Shown here one piece after another: positions 16,432 to 58,757 of a stretch of 64,000 nucleotides of DNA (position 1 is the first letter of the stretch; every line of letters begins with the position of its first letter). Origin of the DNA: Chitinophagales bacterium (GTDB lineage: Bacteria > Bacteroidota > Bacteroidia > Chitinophagales > JADIYW01); NCBI GenBank assembly GCA_044227665.1, contig JBGAWK010000004.1, positions 10,901-74,900 of the forward strand. The letters are read 5' to 3'. The position numbers and the translations under genes were made by a program. The notes under the pieces are model-generated. The model was given only the letters and a program-made list of their open reading frames with translations. It was not told the DNA's origin and ran no database searches.

Positions 16432-18624
16432 ATGCTTACATCACCTATCACTACACAAATATTTTCGGTGAGACGCATGAGTTGCGCTTCCTGTGCGACA
16501 CGTGTAGAGCATGTCTTATCTCGACTAGACGGGGTGGAGGAAGCTGTAGTCAATTTTGCAGCGGCAACCGTCAAGGTACGCTATAATCCTAAGCTCGTAC
16601 AGCCTTCCGTATTGAAAGAAGCCTTAGACAAGCAATCCTATATCCTAGACATACAAGACGACAAAGACTTGCTGAAGGCAAAGACTTTGAAGCAACTTAG
16701 AAGATATTGTCTTTTGGCTATTCTTCTGTCCATTCCCATCATGGTATTGGGTATGGCTGCTATGCATGTACGTTACGTAGCTTTTCTCCTTGCCCTGCTC
16801 AGTACACCCATAGTGTTTTTTATAGGCAGAGACTTTCATCAGAGTGCTTGGAGGCAGTTGAAATCTCGGCATCTGGGTATGGATGCTCTTGTATCGCTAA
16901 GTACACTTATAGCCTATACTTATAGTCTTATCCATACTTTTTTTCCAAAATATTGGACTTCTAAAGGCATAGAAACTCATCTGTACTACGAAGCTGCTAC
17001 TATGATTATCACCTTCGTCATTATAGGCAGATATTTAGAAGAAAAAGCAAAAAAACGCACTACCGCAGCCCTACAAAATTTAATAGGACTTCAGGTATCT
17101 AATGCTACACTCGTGGACTACAATGGGGAACAGATAGAAGTTGCTATAGACAAAATCATGAAATACGATACCCTCTTGGTGAGGCCTGGAGAAAAAATAG
17201 CCGTTGACGGCAAAATCATTGAGGGTACTACCTATATAGATGAAAGTATGCTTAGTGGAGAATCTTTACCCTTGTATAAACAAGTGGGCGACAAAGTCTT
17301 CGCCGGCACCATCAACCAGAAGGGCAGCATAAAGTTTCAGGCTTTAGAAGTGGGCGACAATACGGTATTAGCACATATCATCAAGAAGGTAGAAGAGGCT
17401 CAGGGCAGCAAAGCCCCCATACAGCGACTTACTGACCGTATAGCCTCTGTTTTCATACCTATAATCATGGTGGTAGCCTTTACTACCTTTGCTCTTTGGA
17501 ATATTTTTGGCGGAGCAGATGGCTTCTACCTCGGACTATCCTGTAGTATTGCAGTGCTAGTGATAGCCTGTCCCTGTGCCTTGGGTTTGGCTACGCCCAC
17601 TGCAATTAGCGTAGGTATGGGCAGAGCCGCAGAAAAAGGCATCTTATTTAAGGATGCCGAAAGCATGGAACACCTGAGAAAAACTGACACTATAGTCCTA
17701 GACAAGACAGGGACACTTACCAAGGGAACACCACAAGTGAAAGAGTTCTTACAAATAGAGAAAAGCGATATTGCCATGGCAGTATTCAAGAGTTTGGAAC
17801 AGAAGTCTGAACATCCCTTAGCCCAAGCTGTTGTTATTTATCTCCAAGATATTCCTTCAGTAAAAATTAAAGATTACCATACCCATACCGGACAAGGCGT
17901 AACAGGAGTACACTTGCAGACACACTATGCTATCGGTACGATGGCATTTATTAAAGATAGAGGCATCCACATCCCTTCACACGTAGAAAAACAGCTATAC
18001 ACTTGGGAACAACAAGCTCTCACAGTTATCGCTTTTGCAGATGACAAACAATTACTAGCATTGGCAGCCTTACAGGACACCCTTAGGGAAGATGCCGTAG
18101 CTACACTCCAAACTTTGAAAATAAAAAACATTAGGGTCGCCCTTCTTTCAGGAGATAGTGAGGCTGCTGTAGCTGCTATGGCTAAACAGATAGGCATATT
18201 AGATTACCGTTCCCGAATGTTGCCACAAGACAAAGCCTCATACATTGCGGAATTACAACAAAAAGGATATAAAGTACTCATGGTAGGTGACGGTATCAAT
18301 GACAGCCCTGCCTTAGCTCAAGCAGATGTGAGCATGGCTATGGGCAGTGGCACAGACATAGCCATGGAAGTTGCCAATATTACTTTGCTTCATGGTGACT
18401 TACAGAAAATACCTATTGCAATACAGCTATCTCACGATATACAAAAGGTTATTTATCAAAATCTACTATGGGCATTCCTTTACAATGCAGTTAGCATACC
18501 CATAGCTGCCGGCATTCTGTATCCTAGCTTTGGAATTTCATTACATCCTATGTTGGCAGCCGCCGCTATGTCCCTGAGTAGTGTATCCGTAATAACCAAT
18601 AGTCTGAGACTACGTAAGAGGTGA
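16432..18624 (+). CDS. copA: Cu(I)-translocating P1B-type ATPase
   Basis: HMA MSCASC, CPC, DKTGTLT, SEHPLA, GDGIND, YN and MSLSS motifs. Confidence 0.93.
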   Translation: MLTSPITTQIFSVRRMSCASCATRVEHVLSRLDGVEEAVVNFAAATVKVRYNPKLVQPSVLKEALDKQSYILDIQDDKDLLKAKTLKQLRRYCLLAILLSIPIMVLGMAAMHVRYVAFLLALLSTPIVFFIGRDFHQSAWRQLKSRHLGMDALVSLSTLIAYTYSLIHTFFPKYWTSKGIETHLYYEAATMIITFVIIGRYLEEKAKKRTTAALQNLIGLQVSNATLVDYNGEQIEVAIDKIMKYDTLLVRPGEKIAVDGKIIEGTTYIDESMLSGESLPLYKQVGDKVFAGTINQKGSIKFQALEVGDNTVLAHIIKKVEEAQGSKAPIQRLTDRIASVFIPIIMVVAFTTFALWNIFGGADGFYLGLSCSIAVLVIACPCALGLATPTAISVGMGRAAEKGILFKDAESMEHLRKTDTIVLDKTGTLTKGTPQVKEFLQIEKSDIAMAVFKSLEQKSEHPLAQAVVIYLQDIPSVKIKDYHTHTGQGVTGVHLQTHYAIGTMAFIKDRGIHIPSHVEKQLYTWEQQALTVIAFADDKQLLALAALQDTLREDAVATLQTLKIKNIRVALLSGDSEAAVAAMAKQIGILDYRSRMLPQDKASYIAELQQKGYKVLMVGDGINDSPALAQADVSMAMGSGTDIAMEVANITLLHGDLQKIPIAIQLSHDIQKVIYQNLLWAFLYNAVSIPIAAGILYPSFGISLHPMLAAAAMSLSSVSVITNSLRLRKR

Positions 18625-47798: not shown

Positions 47799-50700
47799 AT
47801 GAAAAAAAATCTACTTATTCTATCTCTAACTTTATTGTACTTAGCAAAGAGTTATGGACAATTGGCAGATATTACCTATTCTATCCGGACAGGCAATATT
47901 ACGAGTTATGAGAATGCTACAGGGGGTGATTGTTGGGAAACAGGTACTGAGGAATACACAGGATATCTCGACTCTTGGGACAACGTAAATAGCACATGGG
48001 TGGGTACAGGCTGTCAAACCTGTGACAACAACGGAAATTGTACATACGCTAGTGATATAGCTTTACAAACCCGCTCTAACAATGCTTATACTGTAACATT
48101 TAGAATTGATGCGTGGGAGGACGATAAGAGTGGAAGGTGTTCCTATGACGGACCATCAGATGATTGCCGTAGAAATGAAACAAATACTACAGATATTAGA
48201 GAACTAGCCTACCCTTCTAATGGCACTTACACGAATACTAGCACTTGGGGGAGCACAGGTAATCATACGTACTATTTTAAATGTACTTGGAAATATTCGG
48301 GTACTGCAAACCTTATTACTCCTTCTGCATCCTGCCAGTCAGCTAATGTAGCTACAGGTGCTATTCGATCGTGGTCAGTAAATATGACTGCAGGCACTAC
48401 TTATGCATTCAGCAATTATGGTTCAGGTGCAGATACTAAAATTAGGATTTATAATACTGATGGCTATACAATTATGGCATCAAACGATGATAACGGACCT
48501 CATGTTGCTGGTTCAGCAGCTTCGATAGAATATACAGCTCCATCTACCGGTACATATTATGTAGAGTTATCAAATTTTGACAGATCAGAACTTACCACTA
48601 ATTCAACACTATCCTATTGGATAAAACCTACTTCTATTGCTGGATTTGGTAGCAATACATGGAATATATTAGGTTACAATAAGTCAGATTTAGCATTATC
48701 AAGCAATACTTATGTAGGCTATTATAATGTTAATTCACTATCTTACAATACGAGCTCTGGCCCTGGAATTTATACGAACACACCTACAGATGCTACAGGA
48801 TGGACGGGAGGGTGTGTTCACCCTGATTACCATACAGTAGTAGCTAAAAGACAAGGATTCCCTTGCAAGATTTATCAACTAGATATACCTAATCACGATG
48901 ATGATATAAGAGTATTTGTAAATGGAAATCAGGTATATGAACATTTAGGCTGTTGCGATAATCATAGTAATATCTGGACAGGCTACTTAACCTCTACTTC
49001 TACTATTGAAGTTCGTCACATTGATGGCGTAGGTGGTTCGAACCAAGGTCTTACACTTACAGATGTAACCACAGCTTTAAACGGAGGTAGTATCGCTGGT
49101 ATTACCAATGGAACTACAATATGTACAGGCGGAGACCCTGGTGCGTTCACGAGTACTGCGAGTGGAAGTGGTGGAACTATAGGCATTACTAATGGTTCTC
49201 CGTCAGCAGAAACATACCAATGGGAGTCTTCAACAACAAGTAGTACTACAGGATATTCAAATATTGGAGGTGCTACCTCTACAACTTACGACCCAGGAGC
49301 ACTTACTGCAACAACATGGTTCAGACGCAGAGTAACAGATGCTTGTGGTACAGTTAGCTATTCTAACGTAATACAGGTAGTAGTTGTAGCAGATCCTACT
49401 GCACCTACTGCAACTAAATCACCAGCTGTGGCGACAGTATGTGCTGGTGCTACACTTACGCTTACTGGACCTACTGCTGGCGCAGGCGGAACAGGAACTT
49501 GTAACTTTGAATATCGCTATAGCTTTGATGGTGTAGGCTATACTTCTTGGAATACATCAGTGCCTTCTATCACGGCTGTAACGGGTACAAATTATATAGA
49601 AATCAGAACAAATTGTAGTGGAATTGGATGTGATATTAGCCCTACAACTTCCTACTCATGGACTGTAGCTGCTGACCCTACTGCCCCTACCAATACACCT
49701 ACACCTTCGGCTTCTACCGTGTGTGTGGGCGCAACATTAAGTGTATCTGCTGGAGGTAGTTCCGGAGGCACAGGTACTTGTGCTTATGAATACGCTATAG
49801 ATCCGGGTACTGGAACATTTGGTACTTGGGGCGCTACAAATTCAGTTACCGCTTCATCTATTGGAAATGGTACTTATAGAATAAAATCTAGAAGGAACTG
49901 TAATGGCAATGGCTGCGATATTTCTCCGGAAAGTGCAATTACTTCATGGACTGTAGTGGCAGATCCATCAGCACCTACTGCTACCAAGTCTCCAACAGAT
50001 GCCACCGTATGTGCTGGACAAACACTTACGCTTACTAGTCCTACGCTAGGAACTGGCGGTACAGGTACTTGCAACTTTGAATATAGATTCAATACTGGTG
50101 GTGGCTTCTCTGCATGGGGTAGTTCCGTACCTAGCTTTACTGCTGTTACAGGTGCAAATACTATAGAAATCAGAACAAATTGTAATGGTAATTCATGTGA
50201 CGCATCCCCTGCATCTTCATATTCGTGGACTGTAGCTGCAGATCCGTCTGCACCTACAGGTATGACCAAGTCTCCTAATGATGCTAGTGTATGTGTAGGA
50301 GCAACACTCACTGTTACAGGTGCTGCCGCAGGAACTGGCGGTACTGGTACTTGTAATGTAGAATACAGATACAGTACTGATAATGGAGGAAACTATTCAG
50401 GGTGGTCTACATCGGTACCTTCTATCTCTACTGTGGTAGGTACTACAATTATTCAAGCAAGCACTCTTTGTACGGGCTTAGGTTGCGATAGAAGTGCCAC
50501 AAGTCAAGTATCATGGGTGGTAGAGCCTGATCCTTCCGCTCCTACTGCCACAAAGTCTCCAAATCTTACGTATGTATGTGATGGAGAAGTCGTTACATTG
50601 ACTAATATTACAGATAACGGTGGTGGAACAGGAACTTGCGATATTGAATATGCCTTGGATAATGGCTCAGGCAGCTACGGTTCGTGGACTACTACAATAC

Positions 50701-52283
50701 CTTCCTATACTGTATCTGCTCCATCTGGAGATATACGTATAAAAATGCGAAAAAATTGTAATGGTGCTGGATGTAATATTAGTAATGAAACATTATACTC
50801 TTGGGATGTATTTACTAAGTCAACAGATCCTATATCTTTAACACCTACAGCAACTTATGTATGTGATGGAAGTACTGTTTACTTATTAGTAAATGGTGGA
50901 TCTCTAGGAAATGATGGCTCTCAATGGTATCTTTATGATGCAGATCCCAATGCAGGAGGTAATTTATTAGCATCCAATGCTTCGGGATTCTTTACAATAT
51001 CTAACATATCTGGCACCTATGACTATTATGTAAGAGCTGAGGGAGATTGTGGTGTAACTAATACTGTAAATGCACTTGTAGTAACTTCTGCAGGTACAGA
51101 TGCCTCTACTTATGATGATTGTCTTGTTTCATCAACTACATCAAATACTTGTAATGTTAGTGGCTCTCAAACACATTACTTTGTTAACTCATCAAATTGT
51201 GAAATATTCCAAATAAATTCTAATGGTGCTAATCTAGGAAGTACCACATTAACTAGTACCGTTGCAGGAAATGGTCCTGTTGGAGATGGTGGTGATTTTG
51301 CAAGTTGTGATGTAGCTAGCGGTGGTCCTGGTGGAGAATACCATGTGGAAAGGGTCTTTAACTTCTCTTCTGCAAATAGTCCAAGTGGTGCTAATATTAC
51401 GCTTACACAATGTATTACAGATGCTGAATACAATAATTATGAGGGCTTAGCTGCATTCACAGATCCAGACTATCAGAGATGTTATGGGACTACAACAACT
51501 GCTGCAGACCTATCAATAACATGCTTTAATAGTGCAGGTAACGTAGCCTATGTAGGCTCTCCTACCTATTCATCCAAAACGCTTGGAGGAAATACTGTAC
51601 ACTGTTATACATTTACTATTGCAAGTAGTAACCTTAGAACTAGAGGAATAAGTGAATCCAATATTACTGCCTATGGTGATTGTGAGTGCTATCTTCACTC
51701 CTCTGGTGGAGAAGGTGGTCCTCTTCCTATAGAACTTACGAACTTTACGGGTACTTATACCAATAATGCCGTAAGATTAGATTGGGCTACTGCATCAGAA
51801 AAAAATAATGACTACTTTGAACTATTACGTTCTACTGATGGTACAAATTTTGAAGTCGTTGCAACCCTAGATTCAAAAGCTCCTTTTGGCACATCTAATT
51901 ATGTAATTAACTATGAATACACAGACAACAATGTTGTAGGTGGGGTTGTATATTATCAATTGAAACAAACGGACTTTGATGGTACAACATCACTATCTAA
52001 GGTAGTATCCGTAGAAATTCCACAACAATTACTAATTAGTGATTTCCGTCCTAATCCTGCTAAAAATGATGTATCAGTAAAAATTAGTACTACAAGATCT
52101 ACTGACGTTCAGTTTGCATTAGTAAGTATTGATGGTAGAAGGGTAATAGAAAACAACTATAGCTTCAGTAAAGGTGTAAGCCAAATAAATGTAAACCTTT
52201 CAGGATTAGCTTCAGGTACTTATATCGGAGAGTTCATTATAGATGGTATTAAGTATAACAAAAAACTTGTTATCACTCAGTAG
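47799..52283 (+). CDS. Large Cys/Thr/Gly-rich T9SS cargo protein with internal repeats
   Basis: Signal peptide; PPC-like (DT.IRIY..DG..MASNDD) and PA14-like (DDDIRVFVNG) segments; PLPIELTNFTG module; CTD 'FRPNPA...GTY...KKLVI'. Confidence 0.88.
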   Translation: MKKNLLILSLTLLYLAKSYGQLADITYSIRTGNITSYENATGGDCWETGTEEYTGYLDSWDNVNSTWVGTGCQTCDNNGNCTYASDIALQTRSNNAYTVTFRIDAWEDDKSGRCSYDGPSDDCRRNETNTTDIRELAYPSNGTYTNTSTWGSTGNHTYYFKCTWKYSGTANLITPSASCQSANVATGAIRSWSVNMTAGTTYAFSNYGSGADTKIRIYNTDGYTIMASNDDNGPHVAGSAASIEYTAPSTGTYYVELSNFDRSELTTNSTLSYWIKPTSIAGFGSNTWNILGYNKSDLALSSNTYVGYYNVNSLSYNTSSGPGIYTNTPTDATGWTGGCVHPDYHTVVAKRQGFPCKIYQLDIPNHDDDIRVFVNGNQVYEHLGCCDNHSNIWTGYLTSTSTIEVRHIDGVGGSNQGLTLTDVTTALNGGSIAGITNGTTICTGGDPGAFTSTASGSGGTIGITNGSPSAETYQWESSTTSSTTGYSNIGGATSTTYDPGALTATTWFRRRVTDACGTVSYSNVIQVVVVADPTAPTATKSPAVATVCAGATLTLTGPTAGAGGTGTCNFEYRYSFDGVGYTSWNTSVPSITAVTGTNYIEIRTNCSGIGCDISPTTSYSWTVAADPTAPTNTPTPSASTVCVGATLSVSAGGSSGGTGTCAYEYAIDPGTGTFGTWGATNSVTASSIGNGTYRIKSRRNCNGNGCDISPESAITSWTVVADPSAPTATKSPTDATVCAGQTLTLTSPTLGTGGTGTCNFEYRFNTGGGFSAWGSSVPSFTAVTGANTIEIRTNCNGNSCDASPASSYSWTVAADPSAPTGMTKSPNDASVCVGATLTVTGAAAGTGGTGTCNVEYRYSTDNGGNYSGWSTSVPSISTVVGTTIIQASTLCTGLGCDRSATSQVSWVVEPDPSAPTATKSPNLTYVCDGEVVTLTNITDNGGGTGTCDIEYALDNGSGSYGSWTTTIPSYTVSAPSGDIRIKMRKNCNGAGCNISNETLYSWDVFTKSTDPISLTPTATYVCDGSTVYLLVNGGSLGNDGSQWYLYDADPNAGGNLLASNASGFFTISNISGTYDYYVRAEGDCGVTNTVNALVVTSAGTDASTYDDCLVSSTTSNTCNVSGSQTHYFVNSSNCEIFQINSNGANLGSTTLTSTVAGNGPVGDGGDFASCDVASGGPGGEYHVERVFNFSSANSPSGANITLTQCITDAEYNNYEGLAAFTDPDYQRCYGTTTTAADLSITCFNSAGNVAYVGSPTYSSKTLGGNTVHCYTFTIASSNLRTRGISESNITAYGDCECYLHSSGGEGGPLPIELTNFTGTYTNNAVRLDWATASEKNNDYFELLRSTDGTNFEVVATLDSKAPFGTSNYVINYEYTDNNVVGGVVYYQLKQTDFDGTTSLSKVVSVEIPQQLLISDFRPNPAKNDVSVKISTTRSTDVQFALVSIDGRRVIENNYSFSKGVSQINVNLSGLASGTYIGEFIIDGIKYNKKLVITQ
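49380..50810 (+). repeat. Five tandem ~95-aa (about 280-290 bp) repeats in the T9SS protein
   Basis: Units 'V.ADP.APT.TKSP...VC.G.TL...GGTGTC..EY...W....PS.....C.G.GC.......SW' begin near 49380, 49662, 49950, 50229 and 50517. Confidence 0.88.
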
Positions 52284-55207: not shown

Positions 55208-55594
55208 GTGAGAAGGGTCTTGCCTATATTTTTTTTACTCTTATTTCTAAGTCAATATATAATAAAACTTGGCATTGTCATAAATTTCAATCTATTTCAG
55301 GAAGAAATTATCGCCAACTGCTGTATAAATAAAAACCGTCCAGAATTAGAATGTTATGGTAAATGCTATTTACAAAAACAAATACGCAGCGTGGACAATA
55401 ACAATCTCCCTGTTCAAAATAATGGAATAAAAAAGTTTCAAGAAACAGATTTATTTATCATAGAAGATATGGATTTTATTCCTAAGCTTTATACCAAGAC
55501 TTTAGAAAAAAGAATTTTTTCATTTTATGCCTCTTTTTTAATTGACCAAAATGCTCTTTTTGGCCTTTTGAAACCTCCACAAATGCTAGGGTGA
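55208..55594 (+). CDS. Cys-motif upstream ORF with C-terminal Pro-Pro (CruR/CutF-like candidate)
   Basis: GTG 55208, 5 nt after TAACTTTG; N-terminal hydrophobic segment; CINKNRPELECYGKCYL; ends LLKPPQMLG. Confidence 0.7.
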   Translation: MRRVLPIFFLLLFLSQYIIKLGIVINFNLFQEEIIANCCINKNRPELECYGKCYLQKQIRSVDNNNLPVQNNGIKKFQETDLFIIEDMDFIPKLYTKTLEKRIFSFYASFLIDQNALFGLLKPPQMLG

Positions 55595-55635
55595 ATTTCC
55601 ACTATTCTAAGCACATAATTTTTCACTCTATCATT
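55582..55635 (+). promoter_or_regulatory. Predicted stem-loop from the uORF stop region to just before the next start codon
   Basis: AATG-C-TAGGGTGAA (55582-55595) pairs with TTCACTCTA-T-CATT (55622-55635); ATG at 55640. Confidence 0.5.
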
Positions 55636-55639
55636 AATC

Positions 55640-56572
55640 ATGAAAAAAGCAATATTTATTTGTTGCTATATGGCTATTGTATCTTTCAATATGGCATGTG
55701 ATATCTGCGGATGTTCGGCACGAGAAAATACACTAGGTATCTTGCCACAAATACAAAAAAATTTCATAGGCACAAGCTATCAATATAGAAGCTTTAGTTC
55801 TTCACATATACCTGACGATACATCAGATGATAATATAACTGGATTCAGTAAGGAAAAATATCATACACTTTCTCTAACAGGAATGTATTCACCCATATCC
55901 CGTTTGAAAATCACTGCTCAGTTGCCTTTCAATTTTTATAATAAAAACGAATATGGCACTAGTGTATATTCTAGAGGTATAGGTGATATTGCATTCATGG
56001 TCCTTGGAGAAGTTTATAGCACAAAACAGTGTAAACCAAACGGCATTAAACATTTACTAATGGCAGGTATAGGCACAAAGTTCCCTACAGGTAGCATCAA
56101 TAAAAAATATGGCATTGCAATTTTAGAGCAAAACATGCAAACTGGGACTGGATCTTTTGATTTTCCGTTTCTTGCATACTATGCACTTAAAACAAAAAAA
56201 TCAGGCATCAGGTCAGAATTACAATATATACTTAGCACCGAAAATAAAAAAGACTTTAAATTTGGCAATCGCTTTAGTGGTAATCTTCAGACTTGGTACT
56301 GGTATGAAAAGAAGCAATGGAATGTCATCCCCTTTGTAGGTGCGCAATTGGATTGGTCTGGAAAAGACAAAAATCTAGGTATAATTAATGATTATTCCGG
56401 TGGCTGTATGCTGAACGGGATGATAGGCACTGATGTATTTATCAAAAATTTCGGGTGGGGAGTTTCCGTTAAAACCCCTTTATATCAAAATATTGGAATG
56501 GGACACATTGACAACAAAATCAAGTGTAATATTCAATTTATTTATTTAATACAAAAAAACAAAAAATCATGA
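55640..56572 (+). CDS. Outer-membrane beta-barrel 'transporter' with N-terminal CDICGC motif
   Basis: Signal peptide then CDICGC; GIGDI, KFPTG and QTGTGS.D motifs of the MetA-pathway/transporter barrel type. Confidence 0.72.
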   Translation: MKKAIFICCYMAIVSFNMACDICGCSARENTLGILPQIQKNFIGTSYQYRSFSSSHIPDDTSDDNITGFSKEKYHTLSLTGMYSPISRLKITAQLPFNFYNKNEYGTSVYSRGIGDIAFMVLGEVYSTKQCKPNGIKHLLMAGIGTKFPTGSINKKYGIAILEQNMQTGTGSFDFPFLAYYALKTKKSGIRSELQYILSTENKKDFKFGNRFSGNLQTWYWYEKKQWNVIPFVGAQLDWSGKDKNLGIINDYSGGCMLNGMIGTDVFIKNFGWGVSVKTPLYQNIGMGHIDNKIKCNIQFIYLIQKNKKS

Positions 56573-56970
56573 AAAAACAATTTTTATTAGCACTAATAGC
56601 AATTACTTTATCGTCAATAATATCTTGCAAAAAAGATGAAGTAGATACTTCTATTGACCACGTACTTATCACTTCACCAACTACCGGACAGACCTTTGAT
56701 GCATTGGACACAGTACCCATAAGAGCCTTGTTACAAAACAATACAGAAATGCATGGACTTGTAGTATCTCTTGTAAACCTAAGTGATACTACTGTTGTCT
56801 TTCAAATGGATGAACATGTTCATGGCGTTTCGATAAACCTAGATACATTTTGGATAAATAATGTGATGATGCATTCAGATATGCGCTTATATATTACTGC
56901 AGAGATTGACCACGAAGGCACAACGGTAACAGATTCTGTAAATTTCCATTGCCATCCATCTATGCTATAA
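56569..56970 (+). CDS. His/Met-rich lipoprotein (putative metal-binding, Ig-like)
   Basis: Lipobox ISC-KKDE; EMHG, MDEHVHG, MMHSDM, DHEG, FHCHP. Confidence 0.7.
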   Translation: MKKQFLLALIAITLSSIISCKKDEVDTSIDHVLITSPTTGQTFDALDTVPIRALLQNNTEMHGLVVSLVNLSDTTVVFQMDEHVHGVSINLDTFWINNVMMHSDMRLYITAEIDHEGTTVTDSVNFHCHPSML

Positions 56971-56988
56971 TAAAACAAAAGAAAATTT

Positions 56989-57726
56989 ATGAAAAACTTT
57001 AAAATAGGATTTACTATCCTTATATCCATCTTTTTGCTTCTTTCATGTAAAAAAGAAGAAACTATTACCACTCCACAAACACTAAAGTTCCATTGGCATT
57101 CTATGGTAGGTGATGATGACGCAAAATTTGCTACGAATTACACTACCAATGGAATAAATTTTAATCTTAGTGACTGGAGATATTACGTATCTAATTTTGT
57201 GCTCATTAAATCTGATGGTACAGAATATCCTGTAGATGGAAGTGTATTTTTAATAAAAATCTCACAAGATGAATATGAATTAGAAAATATACCCACAGGT
57301 TCCTATAAAGGATTCCGTTTTTCGCTAGGTCTTGATTCCGCAACTAATCATAAAGACCCAACTACTTATGATGCCTCAAATCCTCTCGCAGTACAAAGCC
57401 CAGCAATATATTGGACCTGGAGTTCAGGCTACATCTTCATGAAAGTAGAGGGAAAATATGACTCTTCGATTGCTCAAACCGGCCCCATAAACCAACCTTT
57501 CTTTTATCATGTAGGAACTGACATGATGAAGCAAAGCATAGACTTTAGTACTCATGCATTTACGATCACTGAAGGTGGTAGCAATACTATACATATAAGT
57601 ATGGATATTTTAAAAATGCTTGACAAATTAGACCTTAGAACAGAGAATGCAACGCATACAATGGATAATATGCCATTGGCAACAAAAGTTAGAAATACTT
57701 GGACTAGTGTTTTTGAAGTAGAATAA
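56989..57726 (+). CDS. mbnP: MbnP family copper-binding lipoprotein
   Basis: Lipobox LSC; RYYVSN, G.Y.G.RF.LGLD..TNH, WxW motif YWTWSSGYIFMKVEG, YHVG. Confidence 0.82.
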   Translation: MKNFKIGFTILISIFLLLSCKKEETITTPQTLKFHWHSMVGDDDAKFATNYTTNGINFNLSDWRYYVSNFVLIKSDGTEYPVDGSVFLIKISQDEYELENIPTGSYKGFRFSLGLDSATNHKDPTTYDASNPLAVQSPAIYWTWSSGYIFMKVEGKYDSSIAQTGPINQPFFYHVGTDMMKQSIDFSTHAFTITEGGSNTIHISMDILKMLDKLDLRTENATHTMDNMPLATKVRNTWTSVFEVE

Positions 57727-57736
57727 TTTTTTCAAG

Positions 57737-57765
57737 TTAGGGAGCAAGCCTTGCTTGCTCCCTAA
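57737..57765 (+). other. Strong intergenic hairpin between mbnP and mbnH
   Basis: TTAGGGAGCAAGC-ctt-GCTTGCTCCCTAA; no U-tract follows. Confidence 0.8.
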
Positions 57766-57776
57766 TATATTATATT

Positions 57777-58757
57777 ATGATTCAGAAAATATCTATATTC
57801 ATCTTACTACTTCTGCTATTAGGTTGTAAAAAAGAGGAATATCATGCAGAAGAATATAAACTAAATATACCTATAGGTTTTCCCAAACCATCGATTCCTG
57901 CTGATAATATACCTACGTCAAAAAAAGTAGCATTAGGAAAAATGCTATTCTTTGATCCAATACTATCCCGTGACAGCACAATATCATGTGCTTCTTGTCA
58001 TTTTGAAGACAAAAAATTTACAGATGGGAATATAGTAAGTATTGGTATTGAAGGGAGAAAAGGGTTGAGAAATGCACCTTCATTAGTAAACGTAGCCTAC
58101 CTTCCAAATATGTTCTGGGATGGTGGAGTTCCAAATCTTGAACAGCAAATATTAGCTCCGATTGAAAACGTGAACGAAATGGACTTCAACGTACCTGAAG
58201 TCATTGAGCGTTTACTCAAAAATGATACATACAAACAATTATTTATAGAAGCATTTGACAGACTTCCTGATATATATACATTTACTAGAGCTATAGCCAG
58301 TTTTGAAAGAACGCTATATTCTGGGCTTTCACCGTATGATGATTATACCTATAACCACAATCACAATGCACTCAATGCCTCTGAGATTAGAGGTATGGAG
58401 ATTTTCATGGGCGAAAAGGGTGAGTGTTTCCATTGTCATGGATCCTATTTGTTTACTGATCATAGTTTTGCTAATAACGGTCTTTATGAATTTTATGCAG
58501 ATTCTGGCAGAGCAAGAATAACACTTCTACAGAAAGATGTAGGAATGTTCAAGGTCCCTTCTTTACGCAATATAGCTCATACTGCTCCCTATATGCATGA
58601 TGGTTCTCTAGCAACACTAGAGGATGTCATAGAGCATTACAATTCTGGTGGAAAAAATCATATCAATAAAAGTCCTATTATTAAACCTTTACACCTTACT
58701 GCTGAAGAAATAGAAGATCTTTTAGCATTTCTTCATGCATTATCTGACGATAAATAA
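57777..58757 (+). CDS. mbnH: MbnH-like di-heme cytochrome c peroxidase/MauG family lipoprotein
   Basis: Two CxxCH motifs (CASCH, CFHCH), RNAPSL, FWDG, FKVPSLRN..TAPYMHDG; directly after mbnP. Confidence 0.82.
   Translation: MIQKISIFILLLLLLGCKKEEYHAEEYKLNIPIGFPKPSIPADNIPTSKKVALGKMLFFDPILSRDSTISCASCHFEDKKFTDGNIVSIGIEGRKGLRNAPSLVNVAYLPNMFWDGGVPNLEQQILAPIENVNEMDFNVPEVIERLLKNDTYKQLFIEAFDRLPDIYTFTRAIASFERTLYSGLSPYDDYTYNHNHNALNASEIRGMEIFMGEKGECFHCHGSYLFTDHSFANNGLYEFYADSGRARITLLQKDVGMFKVPSLRNIAHTAPYMHDGSLATLEDVIEHYNSGGKNHINKSPIIKPLHLTAEEIEDLLAFLHALSDDK

Follow-up and report, generated by a model that had tools for sequence, protein, structure and literature searches.

A five-gene operon for probable copper handling in the envelope of a Chitinophagales bacterium, headed by a putative metal-sensing leader peptide

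A 64,000-nucleotide (nt) stretch of DNA from a Chitinophagales bacterium, called the window here, was examined for the function of one operon (GenBank assembly GCA_044227665.1, contig JBGAWK010000004.1, positions 10,901 to 74,900 of the forward strand). The operon encodes, in order, a small protein called P1, an outer-membrane beta-barrel, a His-rich lipoprotein called P3, an MbnP-family lipoprotein and an MbnH-like di-haem lipoprotein (Table 1). A first-pass annotation had described a co-oriented five-gene set led by a small open reading frame (ORF). All five ORFs are present on the plus strand as it said, and they form one real, compact operon. Its reading of the parts also held: a CxxCxC motif directly follows the signal peptide of a protein that AlphaFold2 models as a beta-barrel, the 113 mature residues of P3 include 8 His and 6 Met after the lipobox IISC, MbnP has the lipobox LLSC and the WxW motif W142-T-W144, and MbnH has the lipobox LLGC, the two haem motifs CASCH (residue 71) and CFHCH (217), and PYMHDG at residue 271. 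The lipoprotein status of P3, MbnP and MbnH, which had been claimed before, was read from these lipoboxes by eye. Taken together, the genes look very much like a cassette for handling copper in the cell envelope. The strongest new aspect of the cassette is P1, which is probably a metal-sensing leader peptide.

Table 1. Features of the operon, and a CopA-like gene elsewhere in the window. Positions are those of the window; aa, amino acids.
Feature	Position	Strand	Description
P1, putative leader ORF	55208..55594	+	128 aa if started at GTG 55208, 144 aa if started at the in-frame ATG 55160
P1 conserved Cys codons (C39...C49-x3-C53)	55322..55366	+	motif in 71/72 and 40/42 family members
P1 invariant Pro-Pro codons (CCT CCA)	55574..55579	+	four codons before the stop; candidate ribosome-arrest site
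P1-barrel intergenic region	55595..55639	+	45 nt, with 11 C and a single G; RNA structure not significant (z = -0.20)
Barrel	55640..56572	+	310 aa, ~12 strands, FapF/COG4313-like; signal peptide and conserved N-terminal segment
CDICGC codons	55697..55714	+	residues 20-25, directly past the predicted signal-peptide cleavage site
P3	56569..56970	+	133 aa, His-rich Ig-fold lipoprotein, divergent DUF4625/Big_7 type; 4-nt overlap of its start with the barrel stop
MbnP	56989..57726	+	245 aa, MbnP-family lipoprotein, Bacteroidota single-Cys subtype
W142-T-W144 codons	57412..57420	+	WxW motif
Hairpin between mbnP and mbnH	57736..57766	+	perfect 14-bp GC-rich stem, 3-nt loop, A/T-rich tail
MbnH	57777..58757	+	326 aa, MbnH-like di-haem lipoprotein of the MauG/cytochrome c peroxidase family
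P-type ATPase, CopA-like	16432-18624		730 aa, N-terminal HMA domain; ~37-39 kb upstream of the operon

P1 appears to begin with a hydrophobic helix that follows an RR pair. Then comes C-x9-C-x3-C, and the protein ends with K-P-P-QMLG and the stop. The GTG start, which the first-pass annotation had chosen, is favoured over the upstream ATG because close homologues are 125-130 aa long. Neither Pfam nor NCBIfam contains a family that matches P1. A profile search of 1.84 billion representative proteins returned 8,335 proteins at E <= 0.001 and 6,719 at E <= 1e-10, and the best 150 of the 8,335 are all 99-184 aa long, mostly about 125, and align nearly end to end. Among 301 sampled Bacteroidota genomes the family is found in 109, covering 58 of 144 genera, with up to three copies seen per genome.

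The family has a constant layout. In an alignment of 72 members, basic residues and a hydrophobic helix are followed by the three Cys, a gap-rich and weakly conserved Lys/Glu-rich stretch, and an invariant Pro-Pro (PP). The pattern C-x9/10-C-x3-C is present in all but one of the 72. In every one of the 71 members scored, PP lies 1-9 residues before the stop (mostly 2-5), and PP follows the last Cys at a distance of 65-74 residues; with the second sample described next the range is 64-74, with a mode of 67-68. Of the 71, 36 have H just before PP, 16 have R, 8 have Q and 7 have K; one position further upstream, 50 have F and 14 have L. Cys39, Cys49, Cys53, Pro123 and Pro124 are invariant in a set of 51 sequences. 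A second sample, the 42 copies at the P1-centred loci described below, gave much the same result: PP lies 1-7 residues before the stop in all 42, and the Cys motif is present in 40. The distance to the next gene varies between -53 and 458 nt (median about 116 nt). The first-pass annotation had listed P1 as an upstream ORF and left its role unexplained; the ORF is there, and it is probably the most interesting part of the operon.

The build of P1 resembles that of two copper-responsive leaders of the family DUF2946 (PF11162). CruR (Bp2923) of Bordetella pertussis is described as a cis-acting, 145-aa DUF2946 protein with an export signal, a CXXC motif and the sequence RAPP three residues before its stop (PMC9426467). 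According to that report, a ribosome stalled at RAPP shields the transcript from Rho under copper scarcity, while copper sensed by CXXC relieves the stall and leads to termination before the gene of a TonB receptor. CutF of Rhodobacter capsulatus is reported to have a Sec signal, a CxxxC motif and a C-terminal Pro motif, and CutO is switched on when copper rises (PMC9973294; 10.1101/2025.02.05.636593). For these DUF2946 leaders the Pro motif is said to have been shown to act in stalling (PMC9426467; 10.1101/2025.02.05.636593). Both peptides are also reported to escape detection in membranes or to be quickly degraded there. P1 is like CruR and CutF in its size (< 150 aa), its N-terminal export helix and its place as the first gene. 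CxxxC of CutF has a counterpart in the C-x3-C within C-x9-C-x3-C of P1, and both proteins have Pro-Pro a few residues before the stop. Homologues of CruR are reported to stand first in operons with TonB-dependent transporters (TBDT), PepSY_TM, Sco, PCuAC, YcnI, CopC, MbnPH-like and AhpC_TSA proteins (PMC9426467). P1 largely shares these downstream families: TBDT, PepSY_TM, Sco, PCuAC, MbnPH and AhpC-TSA.

Ozturk et al. (2023, PMC9973294) describe CutF-like proteins by a set of rules: the protein is shorter than 150 aa, it has both an export signal and a Cys motif, its PP lies no more than 15 residues from the end, and the gene after it is on the same strand. In line with these rules, P1 has 128 aa, an N-terminal helix, a Cys motif, PP 4 residues before the stop, and the barrel gene 45 nt further on. 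Their count of CutF-like proteins is given as 5,334, with 19% from Bacteroidota, and members of the P1 family may already be among them. CruR and CutF are proteobacterial, while the host phylum of P1 is Bacteroidota, where DUF2946 matches occur in 7 of 301 genomes (4 over the cut-off). The DUF2946-like ORFs seen in Bacteroidota (loci L083-L088) combine stretches rich in His with CxxC and with an R[AG]PP placed 2-4 residues before the stop; a 400-aa ORF follows one of them. When the hidden Markov model (HMM) of P1 was run against six DUF2946-like ORFs of the phylum, none matched.

Among named clusters of the ESM Atlas, DUF6660 (PF20365) is closest to P1, with a score of 0.88. DUF6660 proteins are about 105 aa long, with an N-terminal helix, CSPFCxCxCCG, and IWQPPK 2-3 residues before the stop, and they occur in 11 of 61 genomes of the class. 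Like P1, they combine a helix, a Cys motif and PP near the stop, and they come first before metal-transport genes. Unlike P1, they have a different Cys motif and mostly RND efflux genes downstream: at ten loci examined (L129-L138, about positions 1400-1840), DUF6660 precedes RND (ACR_tran) pump genes in seven and TonB receptors in two. Membership of P1 in DUF6660 was considered and rejected, as hhalign aligns only the last 25 columns, with a probability of 12%. DUF6660 is probably an efflux-side counterpart of P1. Because DUF2946, DUF6660 and P1 are all made of a helix, a Cys motif, xPP and a stop, and all stand in first position ahead of metal-transport genes, a shared regulatory role would be the simplest reading of the three.

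The spacer after P1 bears on how such regulation might work. Post-P1 spacers have a mean C-over-G skew of 0.171 (n = 110) versus 0.072 for other same-strand spacers (n = 375; Mann-Whitney p = 1.7e-4), a modest difference whose p-value overstates the support since the ORF calls are rough and the loci are related to each other. In the window, no stem-loop over the barrel start, which would be the CutF mechanism, is found beyond chance (z = -0.20). The genome has Rho, and it has four COX1-family oxidase genes and SCO1, which together indicate a demand for copper; no clade II NosZ was found in it. The Rho logic of CruR is favoured for P1 because the spacer lacks structure, is rich in C and poor in G, and is followed by genes of the uptake type. 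It also fits better than the stem-loop logic of CutF, given the skewed and unstructured spacer, the Rho gene of the genome, and its copper demand.

To see what P1 heads, about 6 kb downstream of it was read at 40 P1-centred loci, which were picked by hand for high scores and different genomes rather than drawn at random. P1 is directly followed by a TonB-dependent receptor at 14 loci, by MbnP at 9 and by the barrel at 7. At 6 loci a YtkA-like gene comes next and then a receptor, one of these receptors being recognized by a weak Plug match alone. The remaining loci have a small unknown ORF with DUF2911 and COX1 (2 loci), P3 (1) or an ORF on the opposite strand (1). Further downstream are PepSY_TM (3 loci), BNR-like proteins (3), SCO1 (4), PCuAC (3), AhpC-TSA with NosL (1) and cytochrome c (1). 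As for the outer-membrane component, a TonB-dependent receptor is present at 20 of the 40, directly or after the YtkA-like gene, and the barrel at 14, including the 7 where it is the first gene. Because P1-led operons have one or the other in this way, the barrel and the TonB receptor look like alternatives, which supports the earlier claim that the operon uses a barrel instead of a TonB receptor. In some genomes two operons headed by P1 stand one after the other, such as P1-(YtkA)-receptor and then P1-MbnP-MbnH(-barrel) (loci L051, L107, L114).

The operon itself has no such receptor. A Pfam scan found no TonB_dep_Rec or Plug domain in the five proteins or in the flanking genes, so the first-pass annotation was right that no TBDT is adjacent. 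It had also noted that no methanobactin genes are adjacent. No match to MbnB (TIGR04159) was found in the genome, which is 98% complete, and the system is thus methanobactin-independent, as had been proposed.

The barrel matches no model in Pfam or NCBIfam, PF13557 (Phenol_MetA_deg) included, although PF13557 is matched by 3 of 54 members of the barrel family (best E = 2.1e-9). A word-index search found 22 relatives, one of them with PF13557. The AlphaFold2 model is a beta-barrel with a mean predicted local distance difference test (pLDDT) score of 85.5 and a predicted template modelling (pTM) score of 0.81, and about 12 strands can be read from its DSSP string. The top Foldseek matches are FapF (5o67/5o65, E about 1e-10, TM 0.58-0.68), and the COG4313 channel 4rl8 is matched at E = 1.8e-10 (TM 0.60/0.68). 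In size and fold the protein is thus like FapF (5O65/5O67) and the COG4313 channels (Pput2725, PDB 4RL8; PF13557). At E <= 1e-10 the barrel family is found in 73 of the 301 sampled Bacteroidota genomes and in 41 of the 144 genera.

What sets the barrel family apart from COG4313 and FapF is its N-terminus and its company. The sequence starts MKK...FNMA/CDICGC, where the slash marks the predicted cleavage site. All 23 aligned relatives have CDICGC unchanged. In a wider set of 54 sequences, C20, C23 and G24 never vary, and D21 and C25 show at least 90% conservation. In the COG4313 channel 4RL8, described as a 12-stranded barrel, the N-terminal ~14 residues are reported to occlude the lumen (PMC4493636). 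At the equivalent place in the sequence, before strand 1, the window barrel has the conserved CDICGC...LGILPQ. Of the 14 barrels at the 40 P1-centred loci, 10 have CxxCxC, one has CDIC only, and three have a His/Met motif, RPDGHAPI.VMGDH.H, which replaces CDICGC at the same N-terminal place; these three adjoin SCO1 and PCuAC. Because one likely set of metal ligands is swapped for another beside SCO1 and PCuAC, a metal-ligand role of the N-terminal segment is supported. The genomic partners of the family are copper proteins and not aromatic-degradation or amyloid genes. At the loci of the sister group with the His/Met motif (L124, L125, L127), the barrel is followed by SCO1, PCuAC and a fatty-acid-hydroxylase-family gene.

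MbnP was identified with Pfam model PF20243, which it matches with 139.8 bits (cut-off 27) over profile positions 2-186 of 189; failure of this match had been named beforehand as something that could refute the assignment. The window protein is a divergent Bacteroidota subtype. Its sole Cys is the lipobox Cys20, and the four-Cys motif of the proteobacterial "metallo-mystery pair" protein is not present in it. In an alignment of 44 MbnP sequences from such cassettes, both Trp of WxW and His174 are at least 90% conserved. A search of the Protein Data Bank (PDB) with the single sequence gave no match, while the profile of the 44 sequences reaches 7l6g (E = 0.0016) and places WxW on WNW. In MbnP, Trp174 of WxW is reported to be converted to kynurenine by MbnH, giving a copper site made of His, Met, kynurenine and water (PMC11951088).

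The gene directly downstream of mbnP encodes the MbnH-like protein, which matches PF03150 with 179 bits. Its best solved relative is 6e1c_A (E = 3.7e-58), which we take to be MbnH. The pair is like MbnP (PDB 7L6G) and MbnH of Methylosinus trichosporium OB3b in its P-then-H order, in WxW and the conserved His, and in a di-haem, MauG-like MbnH with two CxxCH motifs. It is different in that both proteins have lipoboxes, MbnP has one Cys in place of the four-Cys motif, and neither methanobactin genes nor a TonB receptor stand beside it. The hairpin between the two genes has a folding energy of -24 kcal/mol (z = -5.66), and none of 200 shuffled sequences was as stable; it could be an attenuator that lowers mbnH relative to mbnP, or a stabiliser of the upstream mRNA. 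A second MbnP-MbnH pair lies on another contig of the same genome (contig C34; 4111-5909 of stretch L139, minus strand), with 71 bits to PF20243 and 177 bits to PF03150. No P1, barrel or P3 is near it, and it is convergent with an FG-GAP protein that has a type IX secretion system (T9SS) tail.

P3 itself matches no model in Pfam or NCBIfam, whereas among its 24 relatives 11 match DUF4625 (PF15418) and 9 match Big_7 at E <= 0.01, and its neighbours in the ESM Atlas bear DUF4625/Big_7 too. Its model is a seven-strand sandwich of the immunoglobulin (Ig) type (pLDDT 86.5), and a fold search returned generic Ig-like folds. CopC (5icu) ranks 12th among these (TM 0.44/0.55), too weak a match for a claim of kinship. 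P3 is thus like the DUF4625/Big_7 Ig-like lipoproteins of Bacteroidota in its fold and in its family's matches, and unlike them it has a conserved set of His and is fixed beside the barrel. H62, H85 and H115 are at least 90% conserved in the family, and H83, E112 and D114 are also present in the eight closest relatives. A complex prediction of the barrel (20-310) with P3 (21-133) scored 0.01 and is uninformative for or against contact.

The mature proteins begin with C-K-K-D-E in P3 and with C-K-K-E-E in MbnP and MbnH. Because these starts match C-X-K-(D/E)2-X, reported as the signal for surface export of lipoproteins in Bacteroidota and defined in Capnocytophaga (PMC5080379), the three proteins may be exposed on the surface, unlike the periplasmic MbnP and MbnH of proteobacteria. 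By a looser pattern, at least two acidic residues after the Cys, 26 of 51 MbnP relatives, 17 of 47 MbnH relatives and 13 of 21 P3 relatives qualify.

The cassette was then compared across Bacteroidota. A scan with the barrel alignment, using one genome per species, gave at least 599 pattern matches, of which at least 542 loci were confirmed, and the best 80 were kept with their flanks. These 80 were scored with script-called ORFs and with profile HMMs built partly from the same loci, so the counts that follow are family detection and not an independent test. On the strand of the barrel, P1 is found at 71 of the 80 loci, MbnP at 55, MbnH at 51 and P3 at 25; MbnP, MbnH and P3 are all missing at 7. 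Loci with P1 have P1+MbnP+MbnH (42), P1+P3 (15), all four (6), P1+MbnP (4), P1 only (3) or P1+MbnP+P3 (1). P1 is missing at 9 loci, 5 of which end within 250 nt upstream of the barrel; these 9 have none of the four (4), P3 only (2), MbnP+MbnH (2) or MbnH+P3 (1). By single-sequence phmmer the commonest order is P1-MbnP-MbnH-barrel (27 loci), and the order in the window, P1-barrel-P3-MbnP-MbnH, is rarer.

Recurrent extra neighbours at the 80 loci are an AraC-type regulator (16 loci), SCO1/SenC, DUF2911, AhpC-TSA and YceI. TonB receptors occur at 7, mostly outside the unit. The barrel relatives are almost all from Bacteroidota and include species of the Chitinophaga, Pedobacter and Flavobacterium type. 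The cassette is a common, modular gene set of Bacteroidota and is not peculiar to this genome. The first-pass annotation had suggested that the system may be uncharacterised. In support of this, a literature search found no paper describing P1, the barrel or the cassette.

Based on these data, we lean towards the following model. P1 would act in cis as a leader peptide like CruR and CutF: it would begin with a helix for membrane insertion or export, and its Cys cluster (C-x9-C-x3-C) would sense copper in the nascent chain. The ribosome would pause at the end of P1, at [IV]-F-[HRKQ]-P-P, and whether the pause is held or released would decide the expression of the genes downstream. With CruR logic, a stalled ribosome would block Rho when copper is scarce, and when copper is present the stall would be relieved and transcription would terminate. 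The barrel would replace the TonB receptor as a ~12-strand channel of the COG4313/FapF fold, in which the N-terminal CDICGC...LGILPQ would serve as a thiolate plug, or as an acceptor, and deliver Cu(I) to the periplasm. P3 and MbnP, the latter with its Trp oxidised to kynurenine by the di-haem MbnH, would capture the metal and hand it on, and the likely final recipients would be the haem-copper oxidases of the cell. The first-pass annotation had proposed a metal uptake or handling system. The parts and the comparative data support that. What the data establish are families, folds, conserved motifs and gene associations; in our reading the metal would be copper, it would move inwards, and MbnP would carry the Trp-to-kynurenine change.

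Several points weigh against this model, in addition to the hand-picking of the 40 loci and the limits of the skew comparison. The tail of P1, [IV]-F-[HRKQ]-P-P, differs from the R-A-P-P or PPP of CruR and CutF, and the 64-74 residues from Cys to PP compare with 45 in those leaders, where a spacing of 45 +/- 2 is reported to matter (PMC9426467; PMC9973294). P1 cannot be placed in DUF2946: it has no Pfam match at E <= 0.1, and hhalign gives a probability of 5.8% that comes from the membrane helix only. A PP motif at the extreme C-terminus could just as well serve a stable membrane protein for docking. Residues 13-34 of the barrel have pLDDT < 50, which makes the placement of the N-terminal segment in the lumen an analogy with COG4313, and known COG4313 channels are thought to pass hydrophobic molecules and not metal ions (PMC4493636). 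MbnP scores 61.3 bits against the NCBIfam equivalog TIGR04052, under its cut-off of 140, and for MbnH the best NCBIfam model, TIGR04039, gives 289.7 bits, under its cut-off of 362.85. The position of the Met ligand of 7l6g, as read from the alignment, is not conserved in the MbnP of the cassette. The physiological role of MbnPH is itself described as debated, with a 2026 study suggesting copper release from methanobactin, or uptake of methanobactin (PMC13729199). Finally, the 23 sequencing runs listed as containing the cassette are metagenome DNA from sludge, bioreactor and soil, and no RNA run is among them.

The most direct challenge to the leader model concerns P1 only, which might be a stable inner-membrane protein whose periplasmic Cys site takes Cu(I) and whose F-x-P-P tail docks on the outer-membrane importer that follows. 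P1 does pair with an outer-membrane transporter at most loci, a positive N-terminus and a single helix would place its C-terminal part in the periplasm, the length of the family is well conserved, the Lys/Glu-rich middle could be a spacer, and the Cys-to-PP spacing is unlike that of CruR and CutF. However, some P1 loci have no outer-membrane transporter in the stretch examined (MbnP-MbnH only, or DUF2911-COX1), and the part between Cys and PP is weakly conserved and gap-rich. In addition, three families that are unrelated or barely related, DUF2946, DUF6660 and P1, share a Cys motif and xPP followed by 1-9 residues and the stop, all in first position, and for DUF2946 the Pro motif is the part with a reported action in stalling. 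We therefore give the stable-protein explanation a minor but real chance.

Another explanation turns the direction of the system around, so that it would be a copper-stress or detoxification cassette in which copper prolongs the P1 stall, as in CutF logic, the barrel exports Cu(I) like proteins of the PcoB/CopB type, and the lipoproteins sequester it. CutF is reported to switch on a detoxifying oxidase when copper rises (PMC9973294; 10.1101/2025.02.05.636593), Cys-rich motifs suit Cu(I) handling under stress, DUF6660 with the same architecture stands ahead of RND efflux genes at 7 of 10 loci, and one P1 locus has an HlyD-type gene after the receptor. Against this, P1 heads TonB-dependent receptors, which are importers, at half of its 40 loci, and it also heads the assembly chaperones SCO1, PCuAC, YtkA and NosL as well as COX1, which points to copper supply to enzymes. 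No multicopper oxidase, CusF or RND pump was found beside the barrel at any of the 80 loci, and the window has no CutF-type stem-loop over the barrel start. Detoxification is thus unlikely. A change of substrate is very unlikely, although it can draw on several facts: Zn, Ni, Co, Fe, or a hydrophobic or redox-active small molecule might be handled instead, with MbnH oxidising its partner for a purpose other than copper. COG4313 channels are tied to hydrophobic substrates (PMC4493636), some CutF-like clusters are described as His-only and beside Ni/Co genes (PMC9973294), the Met ligand of 7l6g is not kept in this MbnP family, His-rich Ig lipoproteins can bind several metals, and a TBDT with PepSY_TM is also a common iron-siderophore arrangement. 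But the recurrent neighbours are copper-specific (SCO1, PCuAC, NosL, YtkA-like, COX1), MbnP with WxW and a conserved His belongs to a copper-site family, and the Cys3 and His/Met motifs at the N-termini are typical ligand sets for Cu(I).

A bolder form of the copper-import model is possible, and we hold it only tentatively. It describes the CDICGC barrel as the most frequent non-TonB partner of P1. P1 would then be a third, Bacteroidota-wide family of metal-sensing ribosome-arrest leaders, either independent of DUF2946 or diverged from it, that governs copper import, and the CDICGC barrel would be a new passive, thiolate-plug-gated Cu(I) channel fed by MbnP, MbnH and P3, whose surface-export signal may put them outside the cell, where they would capture copper.

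The operon is flanked by a GMC oxidoreductase, a divergent M20 peptidase and a CCA/poly(A) polymerase-type enzyme, whose functions are unrelated to it. About 3 kb upstream, at 47799-52283, a secreted protein of 1,494 aa is encoded that contains numerous similar repeats rich in Thr, Gly and Cys. The CopA gene that the first-pass annotation placed 37 kb away is there, as the HMA-domain P-type ATPase of Table 1; the shared contig is the sole tie found between it and the operon. A scan for sigma-70 promoters gave matches no commoner than in shuffled sequences, with a sigma-70 model that is ill-suited to Bacteroidota.

To our knowledge, the entry of copper through the outer membrane is poorly understood beyond a few proteobacterial TonB-dependent systems, and we know of no account of it for Bacteroidota. 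The cassette is a defined and widespread candidate for this step. The combination proposed here is a small, TonB-independent channel with a metal-ligand plug, a methanobactin-free MbnP/MbnH pair with a kynurenine-copper site, and a leader peptide. If P1 does stall ribosomes in response to copper, then control of the CruR/CutF type would reach into a further phylum by way of a family that is absent from the domain databases, and more than 8,000 clusters of "hypothetical" proteins would gain a functional handle.

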